A stretch of 64,000 nucleotides of DNA, taken from positions 1-64,000 of the IMG/VR virus record IMGVR_UViG_3300036770_002019, one strand, 5' to 3'. The DNA comes from an uncultured virus (IMG/VR IMGVR_UViG_3300036770_002019) (Duplodnaviria > Heunggongvirae > Uroviricota > Caudoviricetes > Crassvirales). Under the pieces are notes generated by a model. The model had not been told where the DNA came from. It saw only the letters and a program-made list of their open reading frames with translations, and did not search any database. Numbering within the stretch: position 1 is the stretch's first letter; the number at the start of each line of letters is the position of its first letter. The position numbers and the translations under genes are program-made. Below, piece after piece: positions 41,654 to 59,966 of this stretch.

Positions 41654-44600
41654 GTGAACTACAAACAGAAAATATAAGCTCTTTTACTGGTTTACCAATA
41701 ACTCCTAAAGAAAAGAAACCAGAGGTGAGCGCTTTAACAGGTCTACCAATAACTAATCGTGCGGTTAGAACTGGGGTATTAGGTAATGTTCTTGGGCAAG
41801 CTGCCTCTGGTAATGTTAACTTGTTAGATCAGATGTCTTACAAAGACTATGAGTCTTACAAAAGTTATGGAGTAGCTGTATTGCCTGGTGTAGACTGGGA
41901 TGAGCAAAGAGCTCAAAATCAATGGCGGTTAGAGAAATGGGCTTATGGAGCTACTAAAGCAGGAGTAACTTTTGGCACTTCGCTTTTAGAAAACACGGTA
42001 GGTCTAGTTGTAGGATTAGGATCAATAGCTACTGGTGGAAGTTTTTACGACAACCCATTTGGTAGAGGATTGGATAGTGTAAATGAATACTTTGCAGAAG
42101 CACTCCCAAACTATTATACAAGAGAAGAACAAAACGCTTCTGCTTTAGGTGGGATGATGTATGCAAACTTTTGGGCTGATAAAGTATTAAATGGTGTAGG
42201 ATATGTAGCAGGAAGTATTGCTACTGATGCAGCATTAGCATACCTTACAGGAGGAACAAGTTTAGTTGGGACTGCTGCCAGATACTCACTAAAGTTTGGG
42301 GGAGTTCTATCTAAAGCACAAAAAGCTCAGGCTATATCCAACGTATACAAATTAACTAACTCAGCTCGACAAGGGGCAAAAATAGCAGATGTTTTAACTG
42401 ATGGGGCAAATGCTACAAGTAAACTTAAAAAACTGCGTGGAGCTAGGACAGCTTATGGCAGAGCTGAATCTGGGCTAATATCTGCTATTGGTGAATCTAA
42501 CATTGAAGCAAGACAAGCTAAAAATGAAACTCTGCAAGGACTTAAAGAGCAATATGCGCTGCAGAATGGAATATCAGAAGATGAAATTCCTGCAGAAATA
42601 CTAGCAGGTATGGAAGCTTCTGCTACTGCAGCAGGAAATGTTGTATTTGGTATTAACCTCCCAGTAGTGGGGTTAACCAATATGGTTACTATTGGGAGAA
42701 TGTTAGGCCCAGGCTATAAACGATCTCTTCAAAAAGCTGCTCAAGAACGAGCTAAAAAATCTATTTACAATATTGGTGTTGGGAGAGAAGCTGATGAATT
42801 TGTAGATCTTGGATTGCAAGGTAATGCTGTTAAAAGAGCATTTGTAAAAGGTTCTAGAAAATTCGGAGAGAATTTTACTTCTGCATTATCAGAAGCTGGG
42901 CAAGAAGCTACTCAATTCTTTGCTTCTACGTACGCACAAGATTACTATAAAAACAAGTATTTCGGGAGAGCTGAGGGTATTGATGGAATGATTGACTCCG
43001 CTGTTTATGGGCTAGAGCAAACTTTTGGGACTAAAGAGGGTCTTGAGTCTGCTCTTATTGGGGCAATAGTTGGGGGTGGAACTGTTGGGGTACGTAATCT
43101 TAACAGAATTAGAAAAGGTGAAGAGTCCCTATCCCAAATCAAAACTAAAAATACACAAACAGTATTAGACATAGTTAACAGTACTAATGGTGTAGTAGAT
43201 GCTGTAGAAAGAGCTAAAAGCGCAGATACTTCTAACAAGCTTGCTCAAGCTATGGATAAACTCATAGCCGTAGCATCTGATCCGACAGTAGACAAAGCAA
43301 CTAGAGATAGGGCTCAAAAACAATTTAAAGATTTACAGTATCAACTTGTAGCTAATGAAGCATTTACTCTTCTTGAATTTGGGAGAGAAGATATTCTTAT
43401 GCAGCAATTAGATGATGCTAAAGATTTAGATGATGCTGAGTTTAAAAAAGCTTTTGGGTATGATGTTAACCAACCTCTTCCTGAAGGAGGGAAAGCTGCA
43501 ATTGTAGATAAAATTAAAGATAGGATAAAGGAGCATAAAAAGGTAAAAGGGCAGATAGAGGAACTTGCCCCAAGACTCGAAAGAACTACAGGACTCCCAA
43601 GAACTTTGATGTCTAAAGAACAACAGCAGCAGGAAGATGAACTTATAGAAGCTAACAATTTCTACAGAAAAGCTCTATACAGCAGAGCCTCTGCAATATC
43701 AGGTTACAATACCAGAGCTGCCTCTATGGGGGTAGAAATGCAAAGAATAGCCTCTGAAACAGGGGTATCTTTGAATAGGGGAGCTATGGAAGATTTTGAA
43801 TTCGATCAACTAGAGATTGAATTCGAAGACAATGATGAAGTAAAAGTTCAGGATGGGGGTAAAGTAAAAGGCAAACTTGTAGAGGAACTTCAAAAAGTTT
43901 ATGCAGACCTACAAAAGAAAAACCCACTAGCAGCTAAAGAGTTTGCAACTCTTGCACAAGATTACTTGCATATAGTAGCTGAAAGACAAGCAGCAGTTAA
44001 TTCTTTTGAAGCCTTGACTGATAAGAATGGATTAGAAAAAAGTGAGTACTTACGAAAGCGTCAAGAAGCAATGGAGGCTGAGGCTGCTAAAAAACAAGCA
44101 GAGGCAGAAGCCAAAGTTATTATAGACACAGCTGAAACTGCAAAAGATTTAGAAAAAGTACCTGATAATGCTACAAAGGAGCAGAAGGAATTAGCCAAAG
44201 CTAAAGCCAAAAGACTGCAAAGAGAGGCAGTTAAACGTGCTAAAAAGTACGAAAATAAAACTCTAGATGAACTTAGAGAAATAGATACTGAAGCATTAGC
44301 ACAACTTCCTGATGGGGAAATTGAGTTAGCCGCTCTTGAACTAGCTATTAACAGAGCTAAGAAAAAAGAACAAAGTCAACCAGCAATTGATCAAACTGAA
44401 CCTGAAGCAGTTGAAGAAGCCTTCATCCCTGAAAATGTAGGAGAAGTTCAAATAGTATCAGCTAACAGTAGAGAGTTTGTAATAGCTGGGAAAGTATTCT
44501 ACAATTATGCAGCTGACCCTATATCTGCTATTAACAGAAACGAAGATGGGGTTATAATATCAGTAACTCTTTTAGATGAGAGTTTAAACCCACGTACATT

Positions 44601-47600
44601 TAGGAATGAAGCTACAGTAGATTCTTTAGCTTATGCTATACTTGCAGCACAATACAACACTCCTTCTGACCCAGAGATAACTGAAACAATAGAAGAAGAT
44701 GTTGTTGTACGTACAGAAGCTGTTGCAGAATCAGTAGAAAAACTAGAGCGAAAAGCAAAACTTCCTCAAAATAAAGTTGAGAATTCTCCTGTAGAAGCTA
44801 TTAAAGCTCAACTGTTTGAACTGCATAGGGACTTAGAGGAGATAGTGGAAACTTTAGAAGAAAGACACGCTATACTCAGAGAGCAAAAAGTAAATAAAAA
44901 GAATAGAAGCAGAGACCCTCAGATACAAGAACTTACAAAATTAAAAGCTACTGTAGAAAAGCTTATAGCAGAAAGAAAGCAAGAACTAGAGAAGTTTAAA
45001 CAAGAAGAAGTAAACCTTGAAGATGCAGAGAACAGACTTAATAAACTACGTACTGAGATAAATAAACTCTCCGAAGAAATTGCGGAGCTTGAAGCATTAG
45101 AATCAAGATTAGAAGAAGGGGGAGTTCAAGAACAAGCTCTTGCTAATGTTAAACAGGCTCGCAGAAAAAAACAAGCAACTAAGAATAGACTTAGTCGTGA
45201 ATTAAATAGTATTCAAAATGAAAAAGTTGACTCTACAAGAGATGCAAGACAGGCTGCCGAAAGACTTGCAGGACCAATTAAAGGGCAAGCCAATGAAGGA
45301 GAAGGTGCAAATACTACTCCAGGACCTGGAACAGAGGGGAGAATTGTAGCCTCTAGAACAGATAGAACTGAACAAGCTGCAGAAGAAGTTGAACAAGCAG
45401 AGAGAAACGCTTCTGGGGAGCTTAGAGATCAAGGAGCAGGTCAAGCTCGTGGAGTGAAAGCTGATCAAGTTACTATAACCCCAACCCCTGCAGCTCCATC
45501 AACTCCTGTTTCTACAGATGCTAAAGCTGATATAGAAAGAAGAAAACAAGAATTAGGATTACAAAAAGTATTAAATATTTATCCTCCCGACCAATCTGGA
45601 GGTTATAGAATAAAAATAAAAGGAGATAAATATGAAGTTCTTGTTCAATTTACAGGCAAAAAGTGGGATATTTTTCCTAAACAAAAAAACGGAGATTTTC
45701 AAGCAACAGACCCTGAAACAGGTGATGCTTTATTAATTAATAAAGAACAAAGTAGAAAATTAGTAGAGAAATATTTACCTAAAAAGCTTGTTGATTTAAT
45801 AGAATCAGCTGATTCTATTAAAGGGGTTGATAATCAAATAAAATTTGAACAAGGTGAAATTAAAGAATATGTAGATTTATTTAGAAAAGAATGGTTACAA
45901 GAAAGAATACCTATAGAAAAAGAATTATTAGAATTTTATCAATCTGATAAATTTGACAGAGAAAAAGAAGCTAAAGAAAGAATAATAAAAGCACAACAAG
46001 AAGTAATTGCTAAATACGATGCAGAACTAGCTGCTTTAAAACAACAATCTACTGCAGGTACATTTACACCTACTACTCCGTATGGAACTCCTAAAGGACC
46101 AGAGTTAACTACCGCTTCTACTCAATCTTCTGAGGCAATTCCAGTACAGCAATTACGCCCACAATCAGGATTAGATATTGCTGTACTCCCAAGTAACTTT
46201 GATACCTCTCCTGCATCTCCTGGAAGTGTATATGTAAACCCTGACGGCTCTCTCCCAATGAGTTCTCCTGCATCTCAAACTATAAATGGGGAAGCAGTTA
46301 TAATTGAGGATGGGGCGCTGTACAATTTTGATGATGACTTTGTTGGGAAAACTGTAACATTTGAAGTTAGAGAAGATACTGATTGGGCTAAAGAACAATC
46401 TGATCTTAGCTGGAAAAATGCCCCAATATATGTAGTTCTTGATGGACAAAGAATTGCTCTTTTACAGTCTTATAATGAAGCTAAGAATACAGGTACTGCA
46501 AGAGAGGCTATTTACAGAATGTACAAAGAGGGGAAAACTCCACAAGCAGTTACTACTGGTAGAGGAGCTTTCAGCTTTTTAAATGCTATTAACCCTGATA
46601 CAGGTAAACCTGAGTTTGTAAATCCTTTAGAAGAATTTGAATCTCCTGCTTTTGCAGTTATTAGTAGCGAGGCAAAACAAGTTAGATATATAATCGGTCC
46701 AGGATCTAATCTCCCACAATCAGAGTTAGATAAAATGCAACAAGACTTGGATGAGCAAGCTTCTAAACTAGATAAAGATAAATTTACAGAAGGGCAGGTA
46801 GTTATGGTTGTACGTACCCCAAATGGTAAGTATACAACCTATCCTGTATCTACTAAGAATTTAACTGAAGAGAGTACAAAACTTGCTCTCAAGTTAATGA
46901 GTGAAAACAAAATAGTTGAACTGTTAGACTTAGTTGGGGTTAATGCCGACCCATATAACTGGGCAAGTAGAGCTCAAGGGAAACCATCCTTTTTACATTA
47001 TGTAGAGGCTGGTGACTTTTTTGTATTCCACAGCGATTCTGCAAATCAATTAGTGTCTATTAACTCTACAGAGTTAAGTAAAGCTATGCGTGGGGAGAAA
47101 TTCTCTTTTGGGTATGTTCTTGGACCTACAACTGAGGACAATGATAGATTCGATAAAGATGAAAAAAGAAAAGACCACTCGGCTATTGGTAAGTTTATAG
47201 TTTCAGATCTAACAGCTTTACTTAAAAGAAAGAAGTACCAAGTATCAAAAGAATCTGTAAACGATAAAAATGCTCGTATAGTAAATCCAGAAACTGGGGA
47301 AGCTCAAAACTATCAAGAGTATATTTTTGGGGGAGGTCTTGCACAAGTAGATACTAGAAATAATAAAGGGTCTGTATTCCACGGACTTCAAATTAAATTT
47401 GGGGCAATAGAGTCAGACAGTAAAACAAAAGGAGCTACAACTGCAGCTGCAACTTCTGTACACTCTAAACCTGCAACTACGTCTACTACTGAAGTAGTTA
47501 GATCTGAGGGTAAAAAAGCAGGTAGAGTTAGAAAAACAGAAAAAGTGGTAACTTTGAGTGAGTTAGGAGCTCAACCATCTGATGAAATAAAAGCACAGTT

Positions 47601-47760
47601 AATGGCTGAAATGCAAGGAGTTACCCCACAAAACTTAGCAGATCTTGTAGGTAAATCCGCACCAGTTGCTCCTACAGCTGGGGGAATTAAAGTACTTTCT
47701 AAAAATGATTTGAACTCTCTGATAGATTTTGGAGATGAACTTAACAATATCTGTAAATAA
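41650..47760 (+). CDS. Giant ejected protein 1 (RNAP-associated cargo)
   Basis: 2036 aa; N-terminal hydrophobic Gly-rich helices (SEAGQEATQ, ALIGAIVGGG); long coiled coils; directly precedes the virion RNAP. Confidence 0.75.
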   Translation: MSELQTENISSFTGLPITPKEKKPEVSALTGLPITNRAVRTGVLGNVLGQAASGNVNLLDQMSYKDYESYKSYGVAVLPGVDWDEQRAQNQWRLEKWAYGATKAGVTFGTSLLENTVGLVVGLGSIATGGSFYDNPFGRGLDSVNEYFAEALPNYYTREEQNASALGGMMYANFWADKVLNGVGYVAGSIATDAALAYLTGGTSLVGTAARYSLKFGGVLSKAQKAQAISNVYKLTNSARQGAKIADVLTDGANATSKLKKLRGARTAYGRAESGLISAIGESNIEARQAKNETLQGLKEQYALQNGISEDEIPAEILAGMEASATAAGNVVFGINLPVVGLTNMVTIGRMLGPGYKRSLQKAAQERAKKSIYNIGVGREADEFVDLGLQGNAVKRAFVKGSRKFGENFTSALSEAGQEATQFFASTYAQDYYKNKYFGRAEGIDGMIDSAVYGLEQTFGTKEGLESALIGAIVGGGTVGVRNLNRIRKGEESLSQIKTKNTQTVLDIVNSTNGVVDAVERAKSADTSNKLAQAMDKLIAVASDPTVDKATRDRAQKQFKDLQYQLVANEAFTLLEFGREDILMQQLDDAKDLDDAEFKKAFGYDVNQPLPEGGKAAIVDKIKDRIKEHKKVKGQIEELAPRLERTTGLPRTLMSKEQQQQEDELIEANNFYRKALYSRASAISGYNTRAASMGVEMQRIASETGVSLNRGAMEDFEFDQLEIEFEDNDEVKVQDGGKVKGKLVEELQKVYADLQKKNPLAAKEFATLAQDYLHIVAERQAAVNSFEALTDKNGLEKSEYLRKRQEAMEAEAAKKQAEAEAKVIIDTAETAKDLEKVPDNATKEQKELAKAKAKRLQREAVKRAKKYENKTLDELREIDTEALAQLPDGEIELAALELAINRAKKKEQSQPAIDQTEPEAVEEAFIPENVGEVQIVSANSREFVIAGKVFYNYAADPISAINRNEDGVIISVTLLDESLNPRTFRNEATVDSLAYAILAAQYNTPSDPEITETIEEDVVVRTEAVAESVEKLERKAKLPQNKVENSPVEAIKAQLFELHRDLEEIVETLEERHAILREQKVNKKNRSRDPQIQELTKLKATVEKLIAERKQELEKFKQEEVNLEDAENRLNKLRTEINKLSEEIAELEALESRLEEGGVQEQALANVKQARRKKQATKNRLSRELNSIQNEKVDSTRDARQAAERLAGPIKGQANEGEGANTTPGPGTEGRIVASRTDRTEQAAEEVEQAERNASGELRDQGAGQARGVKADQVTITPTPAAPSTPVSTDAKADIERRKQELGLQKVLNIYPPDQSGGYRIKIKGDKYEVLVQFTGKKWDIFPKQKNGDFQATDPETGDALLINKEQSRKLVEKYLPKKLVDLIESADSIKGVDNQIKFEQGEIKEYVDLFRKEWLQERIPIEKELLEFYQSDKFDREKEAKERIIKAQQEVIAKYDAELAALKQQSTAGTFTPTTPYGTPKGPELTTASTQSSEAIPVQQLRPQSGLDIAVLPSNFDTSPASPGSVYVNPDGSLPMSSPASQTINGEAVIIEDGALYNFDDDFVGKTVTFEVREDTDWAKEQSDLSWKNAPIYVVLDGQRIALLQSYNEAKNTGTAREAIYRMYKEGKTPQAVTTGRGAFSFLNAINPDTGKPEFVNPLEEFESPAFAVISSEAKQVRYIIGPGSNLPQSELDKMQQDLDEQASKLDKDKFTEGQVVMVVRTPNGKYTTYPVSTKNLTEESTKLALKLMSENKIVELLDLVGVNADPYNWASRAQGKPSFLHYVEAGDFFVFHSDSANQLVSINSTELSKAMRGEKFSFGYVLGPTTEDNDRFDKDEKRKDHSAIGKFIVSDLTALLKRKKYQVSKESVNDKNARIVNPETGEAQNYQEYIFGGGLAQVDTRNNKGSVFHGLQIKFGAIESDSKTKGATTAAATSVHSKPATTSTTEVVRSEGKKAGRVRKTEKVVTLSELGAQPSDEIKAQLMAEMQGVTPQNLADLVGKSAPVAPTAGGIKVLSKNDLNSLIDFGDELNNICK

Positions 47761-47766
47761 AAACTG

Positions 47767-50700
47767 ATGGCAACTTGTCCTAATAGAAATTTAAAAGCTT
47801 GGAAAGATTTAGAAGCTGTTCAAGGAGAATCAATTGCATTAGCGATATGGGATAGATTTGATGGTCGTCCCCCAGAATTCTTTTACTCTACCCCACTTAA
47901 AGAGGGGACAGTAATAACAAAAGGATTTGATGTTCAGACTAGATTTACTGAGGAGCAGAATAATGCTATTCTTGATAGTATTATCTACATGCTCATGGAG
48001 CAAAAAAAGCAAGAAGGCTTTAAGATAGAAGAGCAAATTGGAAATAAATCCACCAAAGGCTCTATCCCTAATTTCTTTCTGCAGCAAGCTTATGAGAATG
48101 AAAATGGAACAGCTGTTAGTTTAGAAGTAGCAGAATCTATTTGGGGGAAAGAGCAAGCATACGAAACGGCTGTAAGAGAAAATCTCCCAGAAGAAACTCA
48201 AAATGCATTGTATGATGAGTGGGTAAATGCTATGGAAGAATCAGATGTTTATGAATCTGAACACCCAGCACGTGAAGCCTTTCTTGATATTTATGAGTTT
48301 TGGAATGGGGGTATTATTACCACAGGTAAAACAGAGAATGAAGTAAAATCTGACATAGCTTTAGGTAATATAGATATTGTTGGGTGGAGAGAACTCCTAT
48401 CTAATAGAATTAAAGAGTTTGGGTATTCTATCTCAAACGTCGAACAAGAGGTAGAATTTGCATCAGACGAGGACATACTAGAAAGAATCTACAGTAAAGC
48501 TAGTATGGAAGAAGACCCTTCAAAAAAATTATCTGGGAGGATGAAAGAGCTATTAGCTACTATCCCTAACAGACAATTAAATTTCCTAGGGTTAGCTAGT
48601 TATTTACCTGCAGATCAGATATATAAAGAACTTGCTACAACATTTGCAGGGTTGCAGAACTTCCCTGAAATGCTTGCTCAAGTAGAGACATTAGCATTAC
48701 ATAAACCTCAGTACGAAGCGGTGTCTGAGTTTATGAAAGGATTGAATAAAAAAGATGCTGCAGCTTTCAGTAGAATCTTTGCACAATCTGCAAATGAGTT
48801 TTTGTTGATTAGAGTAGAAGCTAAAACTCCTGCAGGAGATGTAGTTAGAATATTTAACCCAAACGAAAACAGGATTGAGAGATCTATAGCTACTACTTGG
48901 AAGAACGGAGCTGTAGAATCTAACATAGCTAAACCAAAAGCTATCTACAAAGTAACAGAGGAAGGCCTAGAAATAGATCAAAATAAAGCTAAAGCTATTG
49001 CAGAAAATTGGTTATTGGTTAGAAGAGGTATTGCAGGTGTAGATTCGGTATCATCTACTCAGGGGGAGATATCTAAACCTGTACAAGCTCTAACTGATAT
49101 GCTGTGGAATATGGGGATATACTTAGGTGACCCAGAGATTAAACAAGAAACAGCCAATAACCTACAACAAGTTGTAAATACAGGAATATTTGTAGTAGAG
49201 AAAGGTAGAAGACAAAAACTTACAGGTAGAGCTGCTTATAACTACATTGCAAACAAAGAGGGTAAAAGCTTAGCAAGACTTGTATCTCAATTTGTAGTAC
49301 TTAGCCCTGATGGAACTAAAGTTGAAAAAACTTTACGAACAGTTTCCACTACAATGTATGAGTCTCAAGGCTCAACAGTAAGACACTTAGCATCGTTTGC
49401 CCCATTGTTTTTTGAAATGCGTGGGGATAGTTTTGTTAATGGGAAAGGTAAACAAATCTACCCAATTAATTTACGCCATCATTTAGGTCAAGTATTTGAA
49501 ACTCTTGGGAGTTCTACAGAGGATAAAACTAAGATGATGGATATGTATAGAGAGGATAAATTCTTTGCTCCTGTAGAAGGGAAAAATGAATTTGACTCTA
49601 TACTTTTTAGACTTCTACAATCCCCAGAATTTACTAATGAGTTTAGAGCATTTGATTTAGATGCCCTCAAAGATGTTACTATTCCTGATGGTACTGTAGA
49701 TTACGAAAACTTCTCAAATACAGACTCTCTACGCACAAGATTAATTGCATACATCAACTCAGGTAATAGATCTACAGGATTAATTGCTATCCCTATTCAA
49801 TCTGATAGAAAGAAGTTTACTTTCTTCCCATTTGTACGTACAAAAAATTTAGCTGGTACACGAAAAGGTACTTTTGGGATAACAGGGATGACTAAAAACG
49901 ACATCATACTTGGACTTATAGTGCAAGATATGATGCGTATTGCTCATGGTAGAGGAATTCTTAGCAATCAAGTAACTGAAGACGGACTCCCAAACCCACC
50001 AAAAGACCTTCCTGAAACGTATAAAAAGAATTTAAGTTCCCCAAAATCTATGCAATTTGATGGGACTTTAGTTGGGTCAGAAGGTAACATCCCTATTGTA
50101 ACAGATGCTAGGCTTGAATCTAAAACTGGGGAATACTTCATTAGTGATTACATAGAAGAGTTTCTAACTGATCCAGAAGAGCTTAGAGACATTGAACCAG
50201 AAGTATTTAACGAAATACAGACTAAGATCAATGTAATGGTTGAGAGAGCTAACGAATACTTTCTCAACCAAGCTAAGATTTTAGATACTAAAATAAAAGA
50301 ACAAGGGATAACTCTCCCAACAGAGGCACGAGAGTTTGGGGATAGAATGTCATTACTTGAAAATTATGTATTTGATGAGTTCTTAGGTAGAAACGAGATA
50401 TCTAAAATACTTAGAGGTAGTAGAGCTCACGTAAAAGATATTCAAACCTTTTACAAAAGAGTTGGGCATGCTACTACTCCTGGGATGGAGGTAGCTTTAG
50501 CATCAGATTTAGCTATAAATGGATTGCAGGAAGTAGATGGGATAAGCAACTATGGGATGCCTGATACTTTTATAGAAGCTACTTTTAATGATATTAAGCT
50601 TAACTTGGATGAAGAGATGCGTACACGCGCGATAGAAAGAGCTGAAGCAATTCGAGACGGACTTATTGAAGCTGGGTATGATGCTGATTTTGCACAGTCA

Positions 50701-53700
50701 ATGGCAGAAGAATACATGCCTAATGAAGTAGAGGGTACAGACGCACAGGGGTTGATTTCAATAGATTTCTATAGAGATCTAATGCAAGGTAAAGGAGAGT
50801 GGACAATCAACGAAGAGAAAGCTTACGATGCATACAAACAAGCACCCGAAGGAAGTAAGCAATTTGTATATCAAACAGGCTTTACCCCACAAGGATTTAA
50901 ACCAGGAGATGCAGTACCTTTTTATCCGCAAAAACCTTACTATGAGTACAATGAACTTGTAGGTGGGGTTGTTACGACTGACTCACATAAAAACTCTTAT
51001 CACTTACTATTAGAAGGGGAAACAAAAAGTAACCCTGTAAAAGACAATCTAAGACGGAGAATGGAGGCTGTTGGAGAGTATGCAGGCTTGCAACGTATTG
51101 GGGTAGCTAACTTTGTAACAGCAAAGAAGATTAAGATCAACAAGGTTAATACTTTGACTGATAAAGTTGGTGGGCTATCTAATGTAGGAACTAATACAGT
51201 TAACAGTAGAGGACTAAGATTCCCTCAAGAGATCCCAAAAAAGAAAGCTTCTACTACAATGTTTAACCGTCAGGTTAGAAAGAATACAATATCGAACATT
51301 GATCCTAATCACACGTACACATTAAATGCGGGGTTAGATACTGAAATAAAAATATCAGGCCAAGAAATGCTTGATATGTATCACGCCGCTATAGAACGTA
51401 AAATAGAACTAGAATTTAAGCAAGTAGAGAAAGAGCTTGGGGTAGATAAAATACAGAAAGCTTTAGCTAAACAAGATGTTGAAGAGTATAATGCAGCTTT
51501 AACTTCATTTCTACGTAAGCTTAGAGATAAGATTAAAGACAATAACATTGAAAGGGATCTCCCAACTAACTATGATGCTGGGTTAAGAATTGAGTTAGAT
51601 GAAGCTGGGAGACCTCAATACCAAATTCCACTAGACTTCCCTATATACTTTGAAAAGTATGAAAGAGTACTCCTTGGGATGGCTGTTAATGCTGCATTTA
51701 AACAGAAAGTTCCAGGAATGGAGGCTGTGCAAGTTGCAGAAATTGGGGGATATGCTGAATCTGGGGAGTTAAACTTTTACGAAATCCAAAAAGATAAATC
51801 AGGTACCCCAAGAGTAGTTCACATGGAGGTAATGATTCGTGAGGATATAGCTCGTAAATTTGGGTTAGAGCCTGGACAAGACTTAGACTCACTCCCAGAA
51901 GAACTAAGACGTATTATAGGGTATCGTATCCCCAACCAAGGAAAATCTTCTACAGTAATAATGAAGATTAAACGAATCCTACCAGCTAATTATGCAAAAG
52001 CTGTTATAGTTCCTGCTCAATTAACTAAACTCACAGGATCTGACTTCGATATTGATAAGATGTTCTTGATGTTCCCAGAAGTTAGACAAACAGATGCTGG
52101 ACCAGTTAAAGTTCGTCCTCCTTATGAGGGGATATTAGGAAAAGCTGTCCAGCCTGTAGCGGAATCAATTAATATTTATGCAGGAGATAATCAAAATGCA
52201 GATTTAAGTAATTTCGCAATTCGTCCTTTTGTTGTGCAGGGCGTGGAATACAAATCTGTAGAACAATATTTCCAATCTAAAAAGTTTGAAATTGCCGAAG
52301 TTCTTGAATTTGACACACAAGAAGCTGCTGATAAAGTCTTTGCAATAGCTGATAAGATTATGGAGACATCTTCTGGAGCGCAGTTAAAAAGACTAGGAAA
52401 CACAAGAATACCAGGCGTAACTTTTAACGAAGAAAGTTGGAATGTATATGGAGAAGAAGCCATGTATGTGGGTATTTATGAAAGTTTTAATCAGAACCCA
52501 GAAGCAAGAAAACGTTTATTACAAACAGGCAATGCAGAACTAACCCACAAACAAGATAAATCTAAGTGGGGGAAAAAGTTCCCTGAAATACTAACTAGAG
52601 TTAGGGAAGAACTTAAAAAAGAATATCCGCAAGATGTACCTATAAAACCAACCCAACCTTCACAACAAGATTTAAGCACTCCTACTGCTATCAAACCAGG
52701 AGTAGAAAAATTATTTGATTCTAATCCTGAATTAGCTAATCAAGTATATGAAGCTTTGGGGTTTGATAATTTTACTAATCAGGAAAAAGAAACCTTAATA
52801 GCACAATTAAGAAATCCATTATTTGATTTAGTAAGAGGTACTGAATTGTATAATAAATATAAAGGAGAAACTATACCTTACGGCTATTCAGAAAATTCTT
52901 GGAAATTACTTATTTCTGGAATAACTGAATCTAAACTAGATTTAAATAAAATTTTATTAGGTTATAAACAAAGACTTTTAGAAGAAGAAAACACACCTAT
53001 TAGAGAAACAGGTATTGACGAAAAAACAGGATTACCAAAAGGATTTAATCCTTCTACTGGTGCATTTGAAGGAGGATTTGGAGAAATTTCAGAAAAAGAA
53101 AATGCAATAAAAACTTCTAAAAATAAAATAAATGTTTTAAATAAATTTATACAACAAAAACAACAAGCTCTACAACTATACTCTCAATACTTAGATACAG
53201 GTAAACAAGATATAGAAGGATTTAAAGATTTTGCTAAATCTCCACTACAACAAGATATAAGCATAGATAAAATAACAGATATATCTATCCTAAACAATAT
53301 CATTTTAGATGTAGTAGAAGCTGTTCAAGCTAATCTACTCCACGTAAATGAATCTATGGCTCCATTAGATGAATCTACTCTACCTAGATTAGTTGCAGAT
53401 ATTGAAGCTAAATTCCCAGAATTACAAGCCCCACTAGAGTTTGCTAGTGTAGACATTGAGACAGAAATGGGGATACGAAATACTATAGGTAGAGCTATGC
53501 GTGGATTGTGGGCTAACTTTATAGCTGGTCATGCTGTAGCTGCTTTTGGGGATATTGTAGTAAATGCTAACTACGAATTAAATTTAGATGGGAAAGCATA
53601 CCCAAAACTTATAGGAGTTGCAGGGCAAGAAGTTGCAGAGTTCGACAGAGGAGTTCCTATTAACATGATAGGTTCTAGATACTTATCTGCCGCAGTAGAT

Positions 53701-55401
53701 GCTGCTAAAAAACCTTATCAGTATACACTTAATGATAGAACTTTTACTTACCCTATAGAAGCTTATTGGATGGCCTTCTCTGGGGATACAAAAGCGCTGC
53801 ATGATTTCTTGAATGTCCCAATCATAAGACAGTTTACTGATTTGTTTTATACAAAGTATGGAGCCAAACCTATACTAATGGAGAATGCACTATTAGATGT
53901 TATCCCTAAAATGTATAAAGACAGCTTGAAAGAAGATAGGTTACGTCCAGCTACCTCAATGACAAGAGAAGAACTTGCAAACCCACAAGATCTTCCTCCT
54001 GCTAGACAGTACGAGCTGCTATTAAACATGTTAAAGTTTAGAGAGGCTGGTAGATCTATGACTCAAATGTTTAAGGTTATTGCCCCAGATTCTATGGATG
54101 GTATGAACAGCATAGATTCTATTAAATCATACAGAAGTAGACAGAATCAGTTTAACCCTAACATTACAAGCCCAGAAAATCAAATCTTCATAAACCCAAA
54201 TGCTCCTTTAGAGCCTGTAGTAGATCAATTTATAGGACAAGTAAGTGTATATGGAATGCAGAGAGGGTTTTCTAATCTCTTTTTGGATATTGCAGATATG
54301 GCTGCTAAGATATTCCCCATGACTGTATCCCCAGCTATGGATAATCTGGACATGAGAATAATGGATTTAACTGGGAATACACAATTAAATCCTGAAGCGC
54401 ATAGAGATATTAGAAGAGCAGCTATGCTAAGTGTATTTGCTCAAGAAGAATCCCCATTAAGAGAATTCTTCAGTGATACGCACCTAAAACTAAACTATCT
54501 AAACAAGGATAGTAACTTGGTTACAAAGCTCAGGGACTTGAAAGTAAAGTATCCTAAACTTGCAGAAAACTTGTTTATTAGAAAGTTTGTGGAGAACAAT
54601 GATAATGACCTCCCAGAAACTAAAGTGTTCTTGTTAGATTTCGATACATCTTATCAAATGACTAGGTTTGAAAAAGATGCAGTAACTTTAGCAGCATACA
54701 GATTACTTAAACGACCAGAAGAAGTTGTTGGGAAAGATGCTTCGATAGAAGATAGACAATCTATAATAAACTTAGCTGAAGATCTGTTGATGAACACATT
54801 AATAGTTCATGGGTTTAAACAAACGACTGGTTCATACCAAGATCTTATACCTGTAACATTCTTTACAGATAATAGGTTTGCACGTTACAACAATCCTGGG
54901 GAAAGACTTGGATCCCCAGTTAAATACTTTAGACAGCAGATGACTTCTATGTATACCATAGATACTTTTGATAACTTTGCAGTAGATTTTATACGCCAAA
55001 GCTTTCAAACGTCTCCTGGTGGATACACATTAGTCCAAGGTATACGAAAGAAAGCAACACCTAATGAAATCGTTTTAAGTGATAAAGACAAGATTAGAAT
55101 GTACAGAAATGGGTACCCAATTCCTTTTATTACAGTGACAAACTCTACAACTAACGAAACATTCTTGTACGCATCTGGTCATATTTTAACTTCAGGAACT
55201 GTAGAAGGAAAGTATGTAAAAGTTAATCCTTTAGGGGTAGACAGTAAATTAATAGAAGCAACAAACCCTGATAAGTCTGTAATCAATGAACAAGGATTAC
55301 CACTATCATCTATTGTTATGACTTCTACAACTACAGGAATTTCAACTAATGCAGGCTCAATAGCCTCTACAGAGAACCAACAATCTATAATCTGCAAATA
55401 A
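47767..55401 (+). CDS. Virion-packaged DNA-dependent RNA polymerase (crAss-like double-psi beta-barrel type) with inserted domains
   Basis: TDAQG, GYRIPNQG, catalytic GSDFDIDK (Asp at 52042), AAVDAAK; 2544 aa. Confidence 0.92.
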   Translation: MATCPNRNLKAWKDLEAVQGESIALAIWDRFDGRPPEFFYSTPLKEGTVITKGFDVQTRFTEEQNNAILDSIIYMLMEQKKQEGFKIEEQIGNKSTKGSIPNFFLQQAYENENGTAVSLEVAESIWGKEQAYETAVRENLPEETQNALYDEWVNAMEESDVYESEHPAREAFLDIYEFWNGGIITTGKTENEVKSDIALGNIDIVGWRELLSNRIKEFGYSISNVEQEVEFASDEDILERIYSKASMEEDPSKKLSGRMKELLATIPNRQLNFLGLASYLPADQIYKELATTFAGLQNFPEMLAQVETLALHKPQYEAVSEFMKGLNKKDAAAFSRIFAQSANEFLLIRVEAKTPAGDVVRIFNPNENRIERSIATTWKNGAVESNIAKPKAIYKVTEEGLEIDQNKAKAIAENWLLVRRGIAGVDSVSSTQGEISKPVQALTDMLWNMGIYLGDPEIKQETANNLQQVVNTGIFVVEKGRRQKLTGRAAYNYIANKEGKSLARLVSQFVVLSPDGTKVEKTLRTVSTTMYESQGSTVRHLASFAPLFFEMRGDSFVNGKGKQIYPINLRHHLGQVFETLGSSTEDKTKMMDMYREDKFFAPVEGKNEFDSILFRLLQSPEFTNEFRAFDLDALKDVTIPDGTVDYENFSNTDSLRTRLIAYINSGNRSTGLIAIPIQSDRKKFTFFPFVRTKNLAGTRKGTFGITGMTKNDIILGLIVQDMMRIAHGRGILSNQVTEDGLPNPPKDLPETYKKNLSSPKSMQFDGTLVGSEGNIPIVTDARLESKTGEYFISDYIEEFLTDPEELRDIEPEVFNEIQTKINVMVERANEYFLNQAKILDTKIKEQGITLPTEAREFGDRMSLLENYVFDEFLGRNEISKILRGSRAHVKDIQTFYKRVGHATTPGMEVALASDLAINGLQEVDGISNYGMPDTFIEATFNDIKLNLDEEMRTRAIERAEAIRDGLIEAGYDADFAQSMAEEYMPNEVEGTDAQGLISIDFYRDLMQGKGEWTINEEKAYDAYKQAPEGSKQFVYQTGFTPQGFKPGDAVPFYPQKPYYEYNELVGGVVTTDSHKNSYHLLLEGETKSNPVKDNLRRRMEAVGEYAGLQRIGVANFVTAKKIKINKVNTLTDKVGGLSNVGTNTVNSRGLRFPQEIPKKKASTTMFNRQVRKNTISNIDPNHTYTLNAGLDTEIKISGQEMLDMYHAAIERKIELEFKQVEKELGVDKIQKALAKQDVEEYNAALTSFLRKLRDKIKDNNIERDLPTNYDAGLRIELDEAGRPQYQIPLDFPIYFEKYERVLLGMAVNAAFKQKVPGMEAVQVAEIGGYAESGELNFYEIQKDKSGTPRVVHMEVMIREDIARKFGLEPGQDLDSLPEELRRIIGYRIPNQGKSSTVIMKIKRILPANYAKAVIVPAQLTKLTGSDFDIDKMFLMFPEVRQTDAGPVKVRPPYEGILGKAVQPVAESINIYAGDNQNADLSNFAIRPFVVQGVEYKSVEQYFQSKKFEIAEVLEFDTQEAADKVFAIADKIMETSSGAQLKRLGNTRIPGVTFNEESWNVYGEEAMYVGIYESFNQNPEARKRLLQTGNAELTHKQDKSKWGKKFPEILTRVREELKKEYPQDVPIKPTQPSQQDLSTPTAIKPGVEKLFDSNPELANQVYEALGFDNFTNQEKETLIAQLRNPLFDLVRGTELYNKYKGETIPYGYSENSWKLLISGITESKLDLNKILLGYKQRLLEEENTPIRETGIDEKTGLPKGFNPSTGAFEGGFGEISEKENAIKTSKNKINVLNKFIQQKQQALQLYSQYLDTGKQDIEGFKDFAKSPLQQDISIDKITDISILNNIILDVVEAVQANLLHVNESMAPLDESTLPRLVADIEAKFPELQAPLEFASVDIETEMGIRNTIGRAMRGLWANFIAGHAVAAFGDIVVNANYELNLDGKAYPKLIGVAGQEVAEFDRGVPINMIGSRYLSAAVDAAKKPYQYTLNDRTFTYPIEAYWMAFSGDTKALHDFLNVPIIRQFTDLFYTKYGAKPILMENALLDVIPKMYKDSLKEDRLRPATSMTREELANPQDLPPARQYELLLNMLKFREAGRSMTQMFKVIAPDSMDGMNSIDSIKSYRSRQNQFNPNITSPENQIFINPNAPLEPVVDQFIGQVSVYGMQRGFSNLFLDIADMAAKIFPMTVSPAMDNLDMRIMDLTGNTQLNPEAHRDIRRAAMLSVFAQEESPLREFFSDTHLKLNYLNKDSNLVTKLRDLKVKYPKLAENLFIRKFVENNDNDLPETKVFLLDFDTSYQMTRFEKDAVTLAAYRLLKRPEEVVGKDASIEDRQSIINLAEDLLMNTLIVHGFKQTTGSYQDLIPVTFFTDNRFARYNNPGERLGSPVKYFRQQMTSMYTIDTFDNFAVDFIRQSFQTSPGGYTLVQGIRKKATPNEIVLSDKDKIRMYRNGYPIPFITVTNSTTNETFLYASGHILTSGTVEGKYVKVNPLGVDSKLIEATNPDKSVINEQGLPLSSIVMTSTTTGISTNAGSIASTENQQSIICK
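52168..52620 (+). other. NADAR (YbiA-like) domain inserted in-frame in the virion RNAP
   Basis: LSNFAIRPF...YKSVEQYFQSKK...LKRLG...W...M...SFNQNP..RKRLLQTG.AELTH...W...L..VREEL. Confidence 0.8.
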
Positions 55402-58400
55402 TGAGCTGCGAATATAAAATAAACGGGAAAACAGACCCAACCCATACAGAGTTATTCAACTATGTTGCGAATAACAGAGAGAGATCTGCAGACGAAGTAT
55501 ACAGAATACTGAGAGAAGCAGGCATAGCAATTAAAAAAAATGATGCTGGAGGGAATCCTCGTATGTACTTAGTTATGGGTACAGATAGCTCTGTTAGCTA
55601 CAAACGAGCTCAAGACATAAATTTAGGAGCTAGATTATTTTTTGGAGTGCCTCAAAACGAAAGACTTTTAGAGTACACTAATCTAGGTACTAGAAGTAAC
55701 AAATTTACTGGGGTAAATACTCTGTTTGGGTTGAGGATTAATGAGTCCGTTTTAAAAAATATGGAGTCACCTCAACAGCAGTATGAAAATATTGCAGAGA
55801 TACTTGAAGAGGAGGCTAGAAGAGTTATCTTAGACACTCCATCCCCATTTAGGGATGATTATTTATTATCGGAGGCTGCTCTTCAAGCTAATAATTCTGA
55901 AAGATCTAAGTTTTCTAAGATGGCTCAAAATAGTGTAGATAACACTGTTAAGCAAATTACAAAACTAAAACAGGCATTTAAGAATGCTGGTATTGATGTA
56001 GAGGTAAGATTAGATGGGGATATCGAAGAAAAGGGGGTTTTACTTCCAGTAAGTGAAGACAACCCAAATCCAGTAATACTTCTTAACCCAAACGAAATTA
56101 CAGAAGATACTGTATACCATGAGTTTGCTCACTTGTTCATAGATTTATTGGGGTATAATCACCCACTTGTACAACAAGCTATGGAAGAGCTTAGAGGTAG
56201 TGAACTTTACCAAGAAGTATTAGAGTACTACCCCGAGCTGGAAGGAGATACTGAAAGATTAGATAAAGAAGTACTTGCAACAGCAATAGGATTAGAAGGG
56301 GCACGAATGGAGAAGAAGGCCCCTAACAAATTACAATCCATTATAAATAGAATATTCAGAGCTATAGGAAAGTTACTTGGGGTATCTCAAAACGCAGTTT
56401 CTCAGTTAGCTGTAAATATGATTGTGAATGAAATAGATGTTACTCAATTTAGAGGGGCACTATCTTCATATGCTCAAATGAGTAAAGCTGAACGCAATGT
56501 AAAAAACATTGTAGAAACTCTTAGGGAGAAAACAGAAACAGCTATTCTACAATTAGAGTCTCTCCCATTTAAAAACGAAGCCGCTATTAACGAACTCAAA
56601 CTCCAGCAATCTAAACTAGAGACGGTTACAGAAGTAGAGGGTTTGATTGACTTTGTTAACTACACAACTAGATTAGCTGCTAGAGCTGAAACAACTTTTG
56701 AAAACATCTTAACTGAGTATTCTCCTAATCCTGCACTAATTACTGGGGAAAAAAGATTACAAATGCTGCAACAATTGCATCAAGTACATCAATGGTTGCA
56801 GGCATTTCACAATAACACTAGCAAAAATGGGTCTACACTTACAGCTATCAAGTTAGAGCTACGTAAAAAAACAGATGCTGTAGAAGCTTCTGGTGGGAAT
56901 ATAGCAGAGCTAACAGCTTTTAAAACCAGACTGGCAGATGCTATTGATGTATTAGATGAGTTAGACGAAAAGTATGCTAAAGTGGGTATCCCAATTCTAG
57001 CAGATCTTCTATTAGAATATAACAAACCGCAGATCGACGATAAAATTAATGCAGCAATAGAAAAAGTCCGCACTACTGGTAGAGAATTTGGGTTGGAGAG
57101 AAAGACCCCTGAATTTAGAGAACTGCAAAGACAGCTTAAAGCAGGAGAAATAACTAAACAAGAGTTTGATGCTGCAAAGATTGAATTGAATATAAAACAT
57201 CTACAAGCCCGTAAAATTGGGAGAGAAGCTATTATTCAAGAGCTTACTGAGAGTCAAAAGAATAAAAGCTGGTTATCATATATGATGGATCCAGTTATAT
57301 ACTCATCTCAACCAGCTATACAGTTATTTGCAGGACACGTTAAAGCAGCACTATACAGAGCTGCAGATAAGTTTAGAGAAACTAAATATGAACTCAGAGA
57401 CATCTACAGAGAGTATGCAGAGTCAAGACCTGGGACGGAATTTGACGATGCAGCTTTCAACGAACCTGTTCTTGAAACTTACACATATGAAGTTATAGAT
57501 TGGGAGGAAACTAAGAAGACTGGGGAACATGTAACTAAGAGAATGAATCTTTTAAGTTTTGTTCAACCTTATGATGTTGGGAAGTATTACCAGGCAGAAA
57601 CAGATGCAATTACATCTTTAGCTAAAAAATATAATCGACCTACAGACCCAGACGAATTAAAAGCTTGGACTAAATCTAAAAAAGCAACTCAATATTATGC
57701 TGAGCTTTCGCAATGGTATGCAGAAAACTCTGTAATGGCAGAAGATGCTCAAGAGAGATATGATACTTTAATAAGTAAAAGAAAAGCTCTCCAAGTAGAA
57801 TTAGAACAAGCTTTACAGGTAGGGAATTCTAATAAAGTTGGGTTGTTAGAAGCAGAGATAGCTTCTTTATCTACTCAAATTGGGGCAGCATATGACTTTA
57901 GAGCTAAACAATTTAAAGGTTCATTCGCTCGACCAAATGATAAGTACAGATCTGAAAAGTACGAAAAGCTTGTAAAAGATAAATCGTCTGTAGAATATAG
58001 ATACTATCAAGCGTTATTAAATGAGTACAAGAAATCTCAAAAGAAATTAGGACGTACAAACCAAGTTAGAAATAGTTGGAATGACTTTTCTTACATACTC
58101 CCAACAGTTAGAAAATCTACCCTTAATAAAACAATAGAGGGGGCAAGTTCTATAGATGTATCTCAAGTTGTATCTGCAGGTAAAGATATGATTAAAGATA
58201 CGTATGAAATCCTGGAAACAGATACTGACTACGGGGTACTTGTAGGATTAAATGGGGAAAGATTACAAACTGTACCTGTATTCTTTACAAACCCTGTAGA
58301 TGAAAAAGATGTAAGTAGGGATGCTCTTGGGAGCATACTTAAGTTTACACATATGTCCAACATGTTTGAAGAAAAATCTAAGATACTTGGGTCTGTAGAA

Positions 58401-59966
58401 ATGATGAGAAGTGTTATTGAACAGCGAGGAACTTTAGAGCAAGATGAATCAGGTAACCCAGCGTTTAATAAAGTTACAGCCAGACTTAAAAATATGGCCA
58501 AGCGTGCTGTAACACAAGACCCTAAAAAAGACCCAGATAATCAATTTAGACATTTAAGTGAATTCATAGACTCTGTATTCTATGGGGAAAAAGATCTTAA
58601 AAATCAATTAAATGCATCAATAAGATTATTTGGGAAAGAGATAGACATATCTGGGAATAAACTTTCTCAAACAGCAACAACTCTAACTGCAGCTACGTCA
58701 TTGATTGGGAACAAGCTGCAAGCAGTTAACCAGATAATAATGGATAATGAACGTTTGATTGAAGAAGGGATTGCAGGAGAGTACTTTGGGAAATTAGATT
58801 TAGCTTGGGCAAAAGGAGAGTACTATAAAAATCTACTGACTTTAAAGACAGTAAAAGATGCAGGTAGTTTTGCTAAGGATAATAAAATGCTTCAAGCTGC
58901 AGAGCTATTAGATGCATTATCTGATTTAATAGACAGCAATGGGGATAGAGTTACAGGAGCTCGTCTTAAAAAGTATCTGTCCTTTGATACAGGATTCTTT
59001 ATGCAGAACATGGCAGAACATGAAACTGCTTTAACACGAATGCTTGCTGTAGCTAGAGGATACAAAGGAAAGCTAAAAGATGCTGCAGGTAATGTAATAT
59101 TGAACGAAAAGAACGAACCTGCAGATTTATACGACCTGCTTGTAAAAGATAAAAAAGGAATGTTAACTCTGGACCCAAGAGTAGCTAATATTACTTTGTA
59201 CGATGTAAGGAGTACATTAGCAGGATTACAAAAGAAATCCAATCAGCTTAAAGGATCAGTAGATAGGTCTATGGCTGAAAGAAGAGCTGCAGGAAAGATG
59301 GTTACTTTGTTTAGAAGATTCTTAGCCCCAGGTTTTAGAAGACATTGGGGTCATGGAGGGTTAGCTAACGTAGCTTTCTTACATGTAGATACAGAAACAG
59401 GAATGCTGTCTGAAGGAGCGTATTGGACTACATTCAAATACATTCGAGATCAAGTACAAAGTATAGCTACAAAACAACCAGCTAATGTTTGGAATTTATT
59501 AACTGCAGATGAAAAAGCTAACGTACGTAGAACTGCTGCACAATCTACATTCTTTTTAAGTTCTATGATTTTAAGTGGATTGTTAATGGGGGCAGCAGCA
59601 GATGAGGACGATGAGGAAAAAGCTGCTCAATACATTTTCTGGGCGTACCAAGCTAGAAGACTGCAGACTGAACTTGGGGCATTCTTATCCCCAAAAGAAG
59701 TGTACAACATTACTAAATCCCCATCAGCTGCTTCTAGGCCTATAATGAATATATATGATCTAATGACACATATTGTTTTCAAAGAGATACCGTATGCTTT
59801 AGGTGCAGATGGATTAGAAAAAGATATTTTCTACCAACGCAAAAGCGGGGAATTTGAAAAAGGGGATAGAAAAGTAATTAAGAAGATCAGATCTGTTATC
59901 CCAGTATGGAGCGGGTTAAACAAAAACGCTGAAGAGGCTATTAAGTGGTTTGATCTTAATGGGTAA
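55401..59966 (+). CDS. Giant ejected protein 3 with a zincin-like metallopeptidase motif
   Basis: VILLNP...DTVYHEFAHLF (His at 56118)...KEVLATAIG; C-terminal hydrophobic helix; 1521 aa. Confidence 0.75.
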   Translation: MSCEYKINGKTDPTHTELFNYVANNRERSADEVYRILREAGIAIKKNDAGGNPRMYLVMGTDSSVSYKRAQDINLGARLFFGVPQNERLLEYTNLGTRSNKFTGVNTLFGLRINESVLKNMESPQQQYENIAEILEEEARRVILDTPSPFRDDYLLSEAALQANNSERSKFSKMAQNSVDNTVKQITKLKQAFKNAGIDVEVRLDGDIEEKGVLLPVSEDNPNPVILLNPNEITEDTVYHEFAHLFIDLLGYNHPLVQQAMEELRGSELYQEVLEYYPELEGDTERLDKEVLATAIGLEGARMEKKAPNKLQSIINRIFRAIGKLLGVSQNAVSQLAVNMIVNEIDVTQFRGALSSYAQMSKAERNVKNIVETLREKTETAILQLESLPFKNEAAINELKLQQSKLETVTEVEGLIDFVNYTTRLAARAETTFENILTEYSPNPALITGEKRLQMLQQLHQVHQWLQAFHNNTSKNGSTLTAIKLELRKKTDAVEASGGNIAELTAFKTRLADAIDVLDELDEKYAKVGIPILADLLLEYNKPQIDDKINAAIEKVRTTGREFGLERKTPEFRELQRQLKAGEITKQEFDAAKIELNIKHLQARKIGREAIIQELTESQKNKSWLSYMMDPVIYSSQPAIQLFAGHVKAALYRAADKFRETKYELRDIYREYAESRPGTEFDDAAFNEPVLETYTYEVIDWEETKKTGEHVTKRMNLLSFVQPYDVGKYYQAETDAITSLAKKYNRPTDPDELKAWTKSKKATQYYAELSQWYAENSVMAEDAQERYDTLISKRKALQVELEQALQVGNSNKVGLLEAEIASLSTQIGAAYDFRAKQFKGSFARPNDKYRSEKYEKLVKDKSSVEYRYYQALLNEYKKSQKKLGRTNQVRNSWNDFSYILPTVRKSTLNKTIEGASSIDVSQVVSAGKDMIKDTYEILETDTDYGVLVGLNGERLQTVPVFFTNPVDEKDVSRDALGSILKFTHMSNMFEEKSKILGSVEMMRSVIEQRGTLEQDESGNPAFNKVTARLKNMAKRAVTQDPKKDPDNQFRHLSEFIDSVFYGEKDLKNQLNASIRLFGKEIDISGNKLSQTATTLTAATSLIGNKLQAVNQIIMDNERLIEEGIAGEYFGKLDLAWAKGEYYKNLLTLKTVKDAGSFAKDNKMLQAAELLDALSDLIDSNGDRVTGARLKKYLSFDTGFFMQNMAEHETALTRMLAVARGYKGKLKDAAGNVILNEKNEPADLYDLLVKDKKGMLTLDPRVANITLYDVRSTLAGLQKKSNQLKGSVDRSMAERRAAGKMVTLFRRFLAPGFRRHWGHGGLANVAFLHVDTETGMLSEGAYWTTFKYIRDQVQSIATKQPANVWNLLTADEKANVRRTAAQSTFFLSSMILSGLLMGAAADEDDEEKAAQYIFWAYQARRLQTELGAFLSPKEVYNITKSPSAASRPIMNIYDLMTHIVFKEIPYALGADGLEKDIFYQRKSGEFEKGDRKVIKKIRSVIPVWSGLNKNAEEAIKWFDLNG

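Follow-up and report, generated by a model that had tools for sequence, protein, structure and literature searches.

We analysed a stretch of 64,000 nucleotides (the window; positions 1–64,000 of IMG/VR record IMGVR_UViG_3300036770_002019, an uncultured virus of the Crassvirales) and found that a segment of its giant RNA polymerase (RNAP) gene is best read as a module of the polyvalent type, acquired horizontally, whose connector peptides would serve as an in-frame recombination interface. We put the probability of this reading at about 0.7. The segment, at positions 52690–53232 of the plus strand, is translated into 181 residues that start with IKPGVEKLFDSNPELANQVYEALGF and end with QQKQQALQLYSQYLDTGKQDIEGFKDF. 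It consists of an N-terminal connector, J1 (IKPGVEKLFDSNPELANQVYEALGF; 52690–52764), a payload core of 129 aa (52765–53151) and two C-terminal connectors, J2 (QQKQQALQLYSQYLDT; 53152–53199) and J3 (GKQDIEGFKDF; 53200–53232), all on the plus strand. J2 extends the last helix of the core in a structural model (residues 133–168). In other proteins J3 is a suffix behind a body of the ART-PolyVal or kinase type, a slot that is empty here.

The module sits in a permissive loop of the RNAP ~30 residues past the catalytic DFDID motif, and in the reading that we favour J1, J2 and J3 are a standard interface across the giant virion and cargo proteins of crAss-like phages. In the compact form of the module, a prefix (the first half of J1, IGTPEQ and the second half of J2) and a suffix (J3) enclose a body, whether ART-PolyVal, a P-loop kinase or some other domain. 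The extended form has an extra payload within the prefix. Because the connectors are near-identical as DNA across many phages and are predicted to encode short helical linkers, homologous recombination inside them could swap, add or delete payloads while the reading frame is kept. Recombination at the connectors would then be both the mechanism and the selected property, and the payload would presumably be delivered with the RNAP and act early in infection.

A Foreign Segment in the Virion RNAP Gene

The segment corresponds to residues 1642–1822 of a 2,544-aa open reading frame (ORF; 47767–55401, plus strand). Residues 864–1442 of this ORF match, by tblastn, the RNAPs of crAss001 (5e-24), phi14:2 (g066, 5e-14) and many PhiCrAssBcn phages, and its relatives P0244 and P0245 are 84–86% identical; judged by this homology, the product is a crAss-like virion RNAP. 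The catalytic DFDID motif, which is known together with its role from phi14:2 gp66 (available text of bioRxiv 10.1101/2020.03.07.982082), was located at residues 1426–1430 (52042–52056, plus strand). By analogy with gp66, the window RNAP is probably packaged in the virion and ejected. Ahead of the segment lies a first insert, a NADAR domain (residues 1476–1603; 52192–52575, plus strand; Pfam PF08719, E 6e-14, 53 bits vs. a gathering cut-off of 35.1), whose GC content at third codon positions (GC3) of 24% is like that of the host gene. The RNAP sequence is picked up again after the segment, where residues 1830–2544 align to residues 1470–2184 of P0245. RNAP, NADAR and cassette are all contained within one ORF, an architecture of the polyvalent type. 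The order NADAR, linker, J1 was also observed at other positions in other giant RNAP-containing proteins (P0121, residues 2360–2546; similarly in P0058 and P0030), and in cr126_1 the NADAR is located at the N-terminus of the RNAP.

The segment is compositionally foreign to its gene and was recently imported. Its GC content is 26.3%, and it is called foreign because its GC3 is 7% (13 of 181 codons), vs. 26% (609 of 2,363) in the remaining gene (Fisher p 8e-10). CpG observed/expected is mildly lower in the segment as well (0.21 vs. 0.31–0.41). An earlier note on this DNA, made from the letters alone, had described a foreign, AT-rich cassette bounded by these two flank peptides, with RNAP sequence resuming behind it, and the translation and the GC3 values agree with that description. 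The same note had counted no GGG among 14 glycine codons; the substance of this observation holds, but the count has to be corrected to 0 of 12 in the core and 1 of 16 in the whole segment, where the single GGG lies in the N flank. In the remaining ORF, GGG accounts for 54 of 145 glycine codons (p 0.009).

The composition also points to a phage of low GC content as the source, since the GC3 of the segment equals that of the cassette in locus L040 (a phage of 27% GC; cassette GC3 7.6%) and the connector-bearing loci of IMG/VR have a median GC of 28% (83 loci). The ORF that holds the L040 cassette has a GC3 of 7–12%, and the composition of that cassette fits its host gene; the window genome has a GC content of 36.6%. 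Among GenBank phages there were no matches to the segment (tblastn) or to the gene (megablast), and an Rfam search of 52000–53900 returned nothing but one sub-threshold chance match.

One Cassette in Three Cargo-Protein Positions

Two other proteins, P0003 (2,923 aa) and P0004 (2,389 aa), match the window ORF essentially over the segment alone, at 84–85% identity. The sole other match is a weak RNAP alignment of P0003 (29% over 51 aa, E 8e-4) to the catalytic region. P0004 is encoded in L040, where the ORF upstream of it holds an RNAP catalytic region, and over its C-terminal 900 aa it shares 25% identity with the protein encoded downstream of the window RNAP. P0004 is the orthologue of this downstream protein; P0003 is a distant RNAP, in which the cassette lies near residue 2331. 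Because both placements differ from that in the window, the same core, at 85–88% identity, occupies three cargo-protein positions in distant crAss-like phages.

The comparison of the window with L040 at the nucleotide level places the ends of the shared tract at the connectors. Identity is ~33% in the upstream sequence, including the codon that adjoins J1, and 91% from the first codon of J1. Over the core it stays at 76–98%. Where J2 ends, directly behind ...YSQYLD, identity drops from 87% to 47%; beyond this point L040 enters an ART-like start and the window enters J3.

The Insertion Site Among RNAP Relatives

We retrieved 118 relatives of the RNAP, of which 95 align at length on either side of the insertion site, ~30 residues past DFDID. 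The site holds at most 32 residues in 93 of these 95; inserts are present in the other two (259 and 94 residues). The insertion specific to the window covers residues 1459–1829 (52141–53253, plus strand), stands in place of 11 residues of P0245 and gives the RNAP ~371 extra residues, in the order NADAR, linker, J1, core, J2, J3. P0245, which is 84–85% identical on either side, passes the site without an insert (...RPPYEALLGIPTTQIESTTPETSIDKITD...). In this loop P0244 (84% identical) has J1, another middle (~126 aa), J2, a body of the ART-PolyVal type (IFPDSKVKDIVYHGT...EQIHILGS) and J3, and then continues as RNAP. Its middle resembles that of P0010.

The cassette is flanked, just beyond J1 and J3, by a 17-nt in-frame direct repeat. 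The left copy (52662–52678, plus strand; QQDLS) and the right copy (53247–53263, plus strand; QQDIS) are equal at 16 of 17 positions, and it is within the right copy that RNAP homology resumes. A match of this quality was reached in 1 of 3,000 codon shuffles, in 0 of 3,000 base shuffles and in 0 of 219 equally spaced pairs of stretches from the ORF, and chance is an unlikely explanation. The repeat may be a duplication that arose on entry of this 585-bp unit into an RNAP with NADAR already in place.

Recurrence and Grammar of the Connectors

The C flank, at first taken as one piece, is composite: J2 (QQKQQALQLYSQYLDT; consensus ITPQQKQQAxQLYSQYLDT) is followed by J3 (GKQDIEGFKxF). In six-frame translations of the window, the J1 hidden Markov model (HMM; E 3.8e-19) and the C-flank HMM (E 4.7e-18) gave one match each, J1 and then J2/J3 around the payload. 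The flanks match at least 279 giant phage proteins at E<=0.01 (region search, proteins of 1,399–4,452 aa), and phmmer, run without this restriction against 1.84 billion representatives, returned 283 clusters of 50% identity at E<=1e-3. The flank HMMs were run on 121 of the 279 proteins, those among the matches listed, and gave 134 N-flank and 134 C-flank matches. Exactly one N flank and then one C flank were present in 107 of these 121 proteins, and where cassettes stood in tandem the gap from C flank to N flank was 4–16 aa in 10 of 14 cases. The middles range from 20 to 884 aa. At E<1e-3, blastp grouped the 128 middles with 30 or more residues into 51 clusters, 29 of them singletons, and the window core clustered with P0003 and P0004 only. 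The connectors therefore recur around unrelated payloads. AAA_33/Zeta kinase and ART-PolyVal were the recognisable domains among the middles, and connector-bearing relatives carry ART-PolyVal, Zeta_toxin/AAA_33 and PDDEXK_1.

The sequence that follows J2 was classified in 194 cases: J3 came directly in 61, an ART-like start in 95 and something else in 38. J3 was found 80–246 residues downstream in 48 of the 95 ART-like cases, and about half of the 38 others were J3 variants by eye, with some P-loop kinases among the rest. J3 was ascertained separately in IMG/VR, in at least 103 unique contexts among the matches listed; within these 103 it follows ...HILGS-type endings in 77, other bodies in 22 (by eye, several are J2 variants) and J2 directly in 4. 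Moreover, there are compact modules in which the first half of J1 is joined to the second half of J2 (ELFESNPELAN-IGTPEQ-YSQYLDT) and which go on into a body (ART, a Zeta-type kinase or another domain) and then J3. From this arrangement, J1 and J2 are the prefix, and J3 the suffix, of a standard ART-PolyVal/kinase module, with the payload splitting the prefix. The extended form holds a second payload inside the prefix, and the window segment is such an extended form with an empty body slot. ART-PolyVal (PF18760) was not found in the window protein (P0001, P0002; Pfam, E<=0.01), where the shell of J2 and J3 alone is present.

A crAss-type RNAP catalytic region was present in four of five sampled connector-bearing virus records (110–155 kb), in ORFs of 3,801–4,276 aa. 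In bacterial and archaeal genomes, a scan for J1 matched five contigs of metagenome-assembled genomes only (L087–L091). Phage sequence that was binned with bacteria is the probable origin of these contigs, which are labelled Patescibacteria, Bacteroidia, Micavibrio, Neisseriaceae and Gammaproteobacteria.

Conservation and Breakpoints at the DNA Level

Loci were retrieved by degenerate patterns that allow any synonymous codon (23 and 46 loci for J1, 14 loci for J2). The connectors are conserved at synonymous sites. The pairwise same-codon rate of J1 was 0.85 in 19 unique contexts, vs. 0.56 expected from local codon usage, and that of J2 was 0.81 in 8 contexts, vs. 0.58 expected. Rare codons are fixed in J1 (CTA in 14 of 19, background 0.12; GGG in 13 of 19, background 0.10) and in J2 (ACC in 6 of 6, background 0.06), and common codons are equally fixed (GCT 19/19, TCT 18/18, TTA 19/19). 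Across 56 unique contexts, mean pairwise nucleotide identity was 0.31–0.35 before J1, 0.72–0.96 within it, and 0.41 and then 0.33–0.35 after it. The same-codon identity of J1 was 0.83 across 2,029 pairs without detectable homology of the middles. For 20 pairs with middles <50% identical, it was 0.79 in J1 (expected 0.56) vs. 0.66 in the middles (expected 0.58).

The J1 stretch of top identity (0.96) includes a perfect 10-bp palindrome, ATTAGCTAAT (52726–52735; codons for ELAN), which, taken alone, could be chance.

The start of the middle was shared by 18 of 1,953 locus pairs, of which 6 were duplicates. In the other 12 pairs the upstream DNA was unrelated in 11 and intermediate in 1. Conversely, L049 has its upstream sequence in common with L006, L010 and L019, and divergence begins within J1. 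Homology tracts between phages, as read from these alignments, begin and end at J1 and J2. The earlier note had stated that the flank peptides recur around unrelated middles and had proposed that they act as recombination handles or as a folding clamp. The 51 clusters bear out the recurrence, and the role as handles is supported by the synonymous-site conservation, by the breakpoints at the flanks and by P0244, an RNAP 84% identical to that of the window with another payload between the same flanks.

The Payload Core

The core is an autonomous domain, because homologues without flanks exist. A core-only search found them in P0125, P0128, P0218 and at the N-terminus of P0150; diverged versions of the core with diverged flanks occur in P0126, P0138, P0139 and P0148. 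In metagenomes, free-standing core ORFs of 148–160 aa (L212, L215, L216) and a 268-aa fusion (L213, L214) sit among small phage-like genes. The metagenome scan with P0128 gave no loci and that with alignment A3 gave seven, and in IMG/VR the L040 contig was the sole match of the core searches. An AlphaFold2 model of the segment is mostly helical, with a predicted local distance difference test score (pLDDT) of 87.3 and a predicted template modelling score of 0.79, and the core has a conserved FNPSTG loop. Taken together with the core-only homologues, this model argues for an autonomous, mostly helical domain family.

The core matched no known family in Pfam, PHROGs, NCBIfam or a PDB sequence-profile search, and the ESM Atlas returned only unnamed viral clusters with low recognition. 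No Foldseek match to the pLDDT-87 model was found at E<=1e-3 in PDB or BFVD, and its best VIA-align Z, 6.0, is inside the noise range of helical models. A ParB-like reading of the C-terminal half of the 268-aa fusion, made by eye, was dropped, with no match in Pfam. The free-standing core homologues of L213 (1144–1947) and L214 (2617–3420) begin with a stereotyped helix (..IKTTIREFLNEN..), which is repeated at the internal junction of the 268-aa fusion; L212 has the same first domain and ends shortly past the junction. This helix may belong to a separate connector system, used by other phages.

Alternative Explanations

Several points weigh against connectors as an in-frame recombination interface. 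The evidence is entirely comparative, and the recombination events themselves were not observed directly. The DNA sets needed 8–14 exact residues, which favours young copies, the pairwise statistics come from non-independent pairs, and the middles also show some same-codon excess (0.66 vs. 0.58). The protein sets were chosen by flank similarity, so the frequency of flank pairing is inflated. The direct repeat lies outside J1 and J3, which hints that this insertion was made by microhomology or illegitimate joining and not by the connectors; first entry at a new site may proceed by microhomology, with the connectors used for later exchanges. Finally, P0126, P0138, P0139 and P0148 retain recognisable, altered flanks; therefore, there is protein-level constraint too, and it could be the primary cause of the conservation.

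It is conceivable, though less likely, that the connectors are kept mainly for such a protein-level role, as a structural adaptor or clamp, an ejection-tolerant helical spacer, a protease site or a packaging signal, and that recent spread and strong codon bias make their DNA alike as a side effect. The persistence of diverged flanks in these four proteins agrees with this, as do the prediction of J1 as two helices (block pLDDT 73–83), the extension of the core's last helix by J2 and the closure of several kinds of body by J3. Compact helical-bundle matches span model residues ~4 to ~170, with weak scores (Z 5.0–5.1), and indirectly suggest that the helices of J1 run alongside the terminal one. 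However, the same-codon excess extends to rare codons, the identity of J1 is independent of the divergence of its neighbours, and the breakpoints are located at the connectors. The prediction of a complex between segment residues 1–30 (J1) and 146–181 (J2–J3) scored 0.02 and is uninformative either way, and an AlphaFold2 model of the compact prefix–ART–suffix module reached a pLDDT of 42.6 from a 5-sequence alignment, too low for use. Protein-level and recombination roles are compatible and not exclusive, and it is likely that the connectors have a protein-level role as well.

The rare codons of the connectors (CTA, GGG, ACC, TAC) might instead be translational pause sites that aid the domain-by-domain folding of giant proteins. 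This is improbable: rare codons are indeed fixed at domain boundaries, but common codons are just as fixed, and the breakpoints would be left unexplained. The 16/17 in-frame direct repeat around the cassette would suit a self-mobile element, either intein-like or homing/transposon-like, with the repeat as its target-site duplication. We consider this very improbable, as Hint, endonuclease and transposase domains were not found in the 181 residues (Pfam, PHROG, NCBIfam), there is no second ORF of at least 100 aa on either strand, and the payload is a small helical domain. That the segment is an ordinary, lineage-specific RNAP domain with ends that merely look conserved has nothing but the in-frame position in its favour and is practically refuted. 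The earlier note had itself allowed that the segment could be a constant part of the RNAP, or that flanks and core could always travel together. Both are contradicted, the former by the 93 of 95 relatives without the insert, and the latter by the core without flanks in P0125, P0128, P0218, P0150 and the 148–160-aa ORFs and by the flanks around 128 middles of 51 clusters. The foreign composition and the flanks found with other cores likewise speak against an ordinary domain.

We retain the reading of the segment as an acquired module with connectors for in-frame recombination. A stronger version of it can be offered only tentatively: J1, J2 and J3 would be a DNA-level standard interface under selection, a natural form of modular assembly by which any payload could be placed, in frame, in any ejected protein, even beside the active site of an RNAP, and which would be kept uniform by frequent recombination between phages. 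A dedicated factor may recognise this interface, because the most conserved stretch of J1 holds the palindrome ATTAGCTAAT.

Relation to Known Systems and Significance

The giant RNAP itself resembles phi14:2 gp66, with which it shares DFDID and a tblastn match, and which is a giant, virion-packaged, single-chain RNAP with two barrels (bioRxiv 10.1101/2020.03.07.982082). It differs in the ~371 extra residues after DFDID; the word "insertion" occurs 0 times in the available text of that preprint. Polyvalent proteins (Iyer et al. 2017, PMC5512222) are the closest framework, since these, too, are giant multidomain proteins delivered with DNA. Their repertoire is common to the connector-bearing proteins for ART-PolyVal, Zeta/AAA_33 kinases, PDDEXK and NADAR, and for ParB by precomputed annotation only. 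The main text of that study notes mosaicism, raises cassette-like recombinational variability for one kinase system and draws an analogy to toxin cassettes. However, stereotyped connector peptides, their nucleotide conservation and nested slots were not found described there, and neither "linker" nor crAss occurs in the main text (0 occurrences each). More generally, no description of the J1, J2 or J3 motifs was found in the literature searched, supplements being outside the search. As for ART-PolyVal (PF18760), J2 leads straight into its start (IFPDSKVKDIVYHGT) and J3 comes after its end (EQIHILGS) in many proteins, whereas the window has the J2 and J3 shell without the ART body.

Two other systems offer parallels. 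Polymorphic toxins carry cassettes with demarcation motifs, such as VENN in CdiA and those of Rhs proteins. There, as here, a constant motif marks the start of a variable payload and supplies homology for cassette replacement; in contrast, the connectors stand on both sides of internal payloads and form nested slots, there is no immunity gene, and the proteins are phage cargo and not secreted toxins. The His-box of T-even tail fibres is a case in which short conserved coding motifs are in-frame crossover points between phages. It swaps receptor-binding segments within one family, whereas the connectors would swap unrelated enzymatic or binding domains between host proteins.

Among very abundant viruses, few proteins are understood as poorly as the giant cargo proteins of crAss-like phages, and the connector grammar, if true, would explain how the latter diversify. 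The connectors give exact domain boundaries for the mining of payloads, with 51 clusters from 121 proteins alone. If the standard-interface reading is true, they mark dozens of uncharacterised, early-acting and possibly anti-defence domains. Moreover, the RNAP loop past the catalytic motif tolerates 260–370 inserted residues, and the connectors could be natural, ejection-compatible fusion points when phage-delivered proteins are engineered in laboratory pairs of phage and host.

Other Features of the RNAP and Its Neighbours

The RNAP has two cysteines only, at residues 4 and 2543 (47776–47778 and 55393–55395). The adjacent proteins have one cysteine each: the upstream protein of 2,036 aa (41650–47760) at residue 2035, and the downstream protein of 1,521 aa (55401–59966) at residue 3. 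The first 28–48 residues of the RNAP (MATCPN..., 47767–47910) are 42–61% identical to otherwise unrelated giant proteins (P0025, P0033, P0039, P0045, P0071, P0087, P0100 and P0108), and the N-terminus of P0004 is a similar MTCPN. Cargo proteins may have such a MATCPN-type start in common, as an N-terminal leader.

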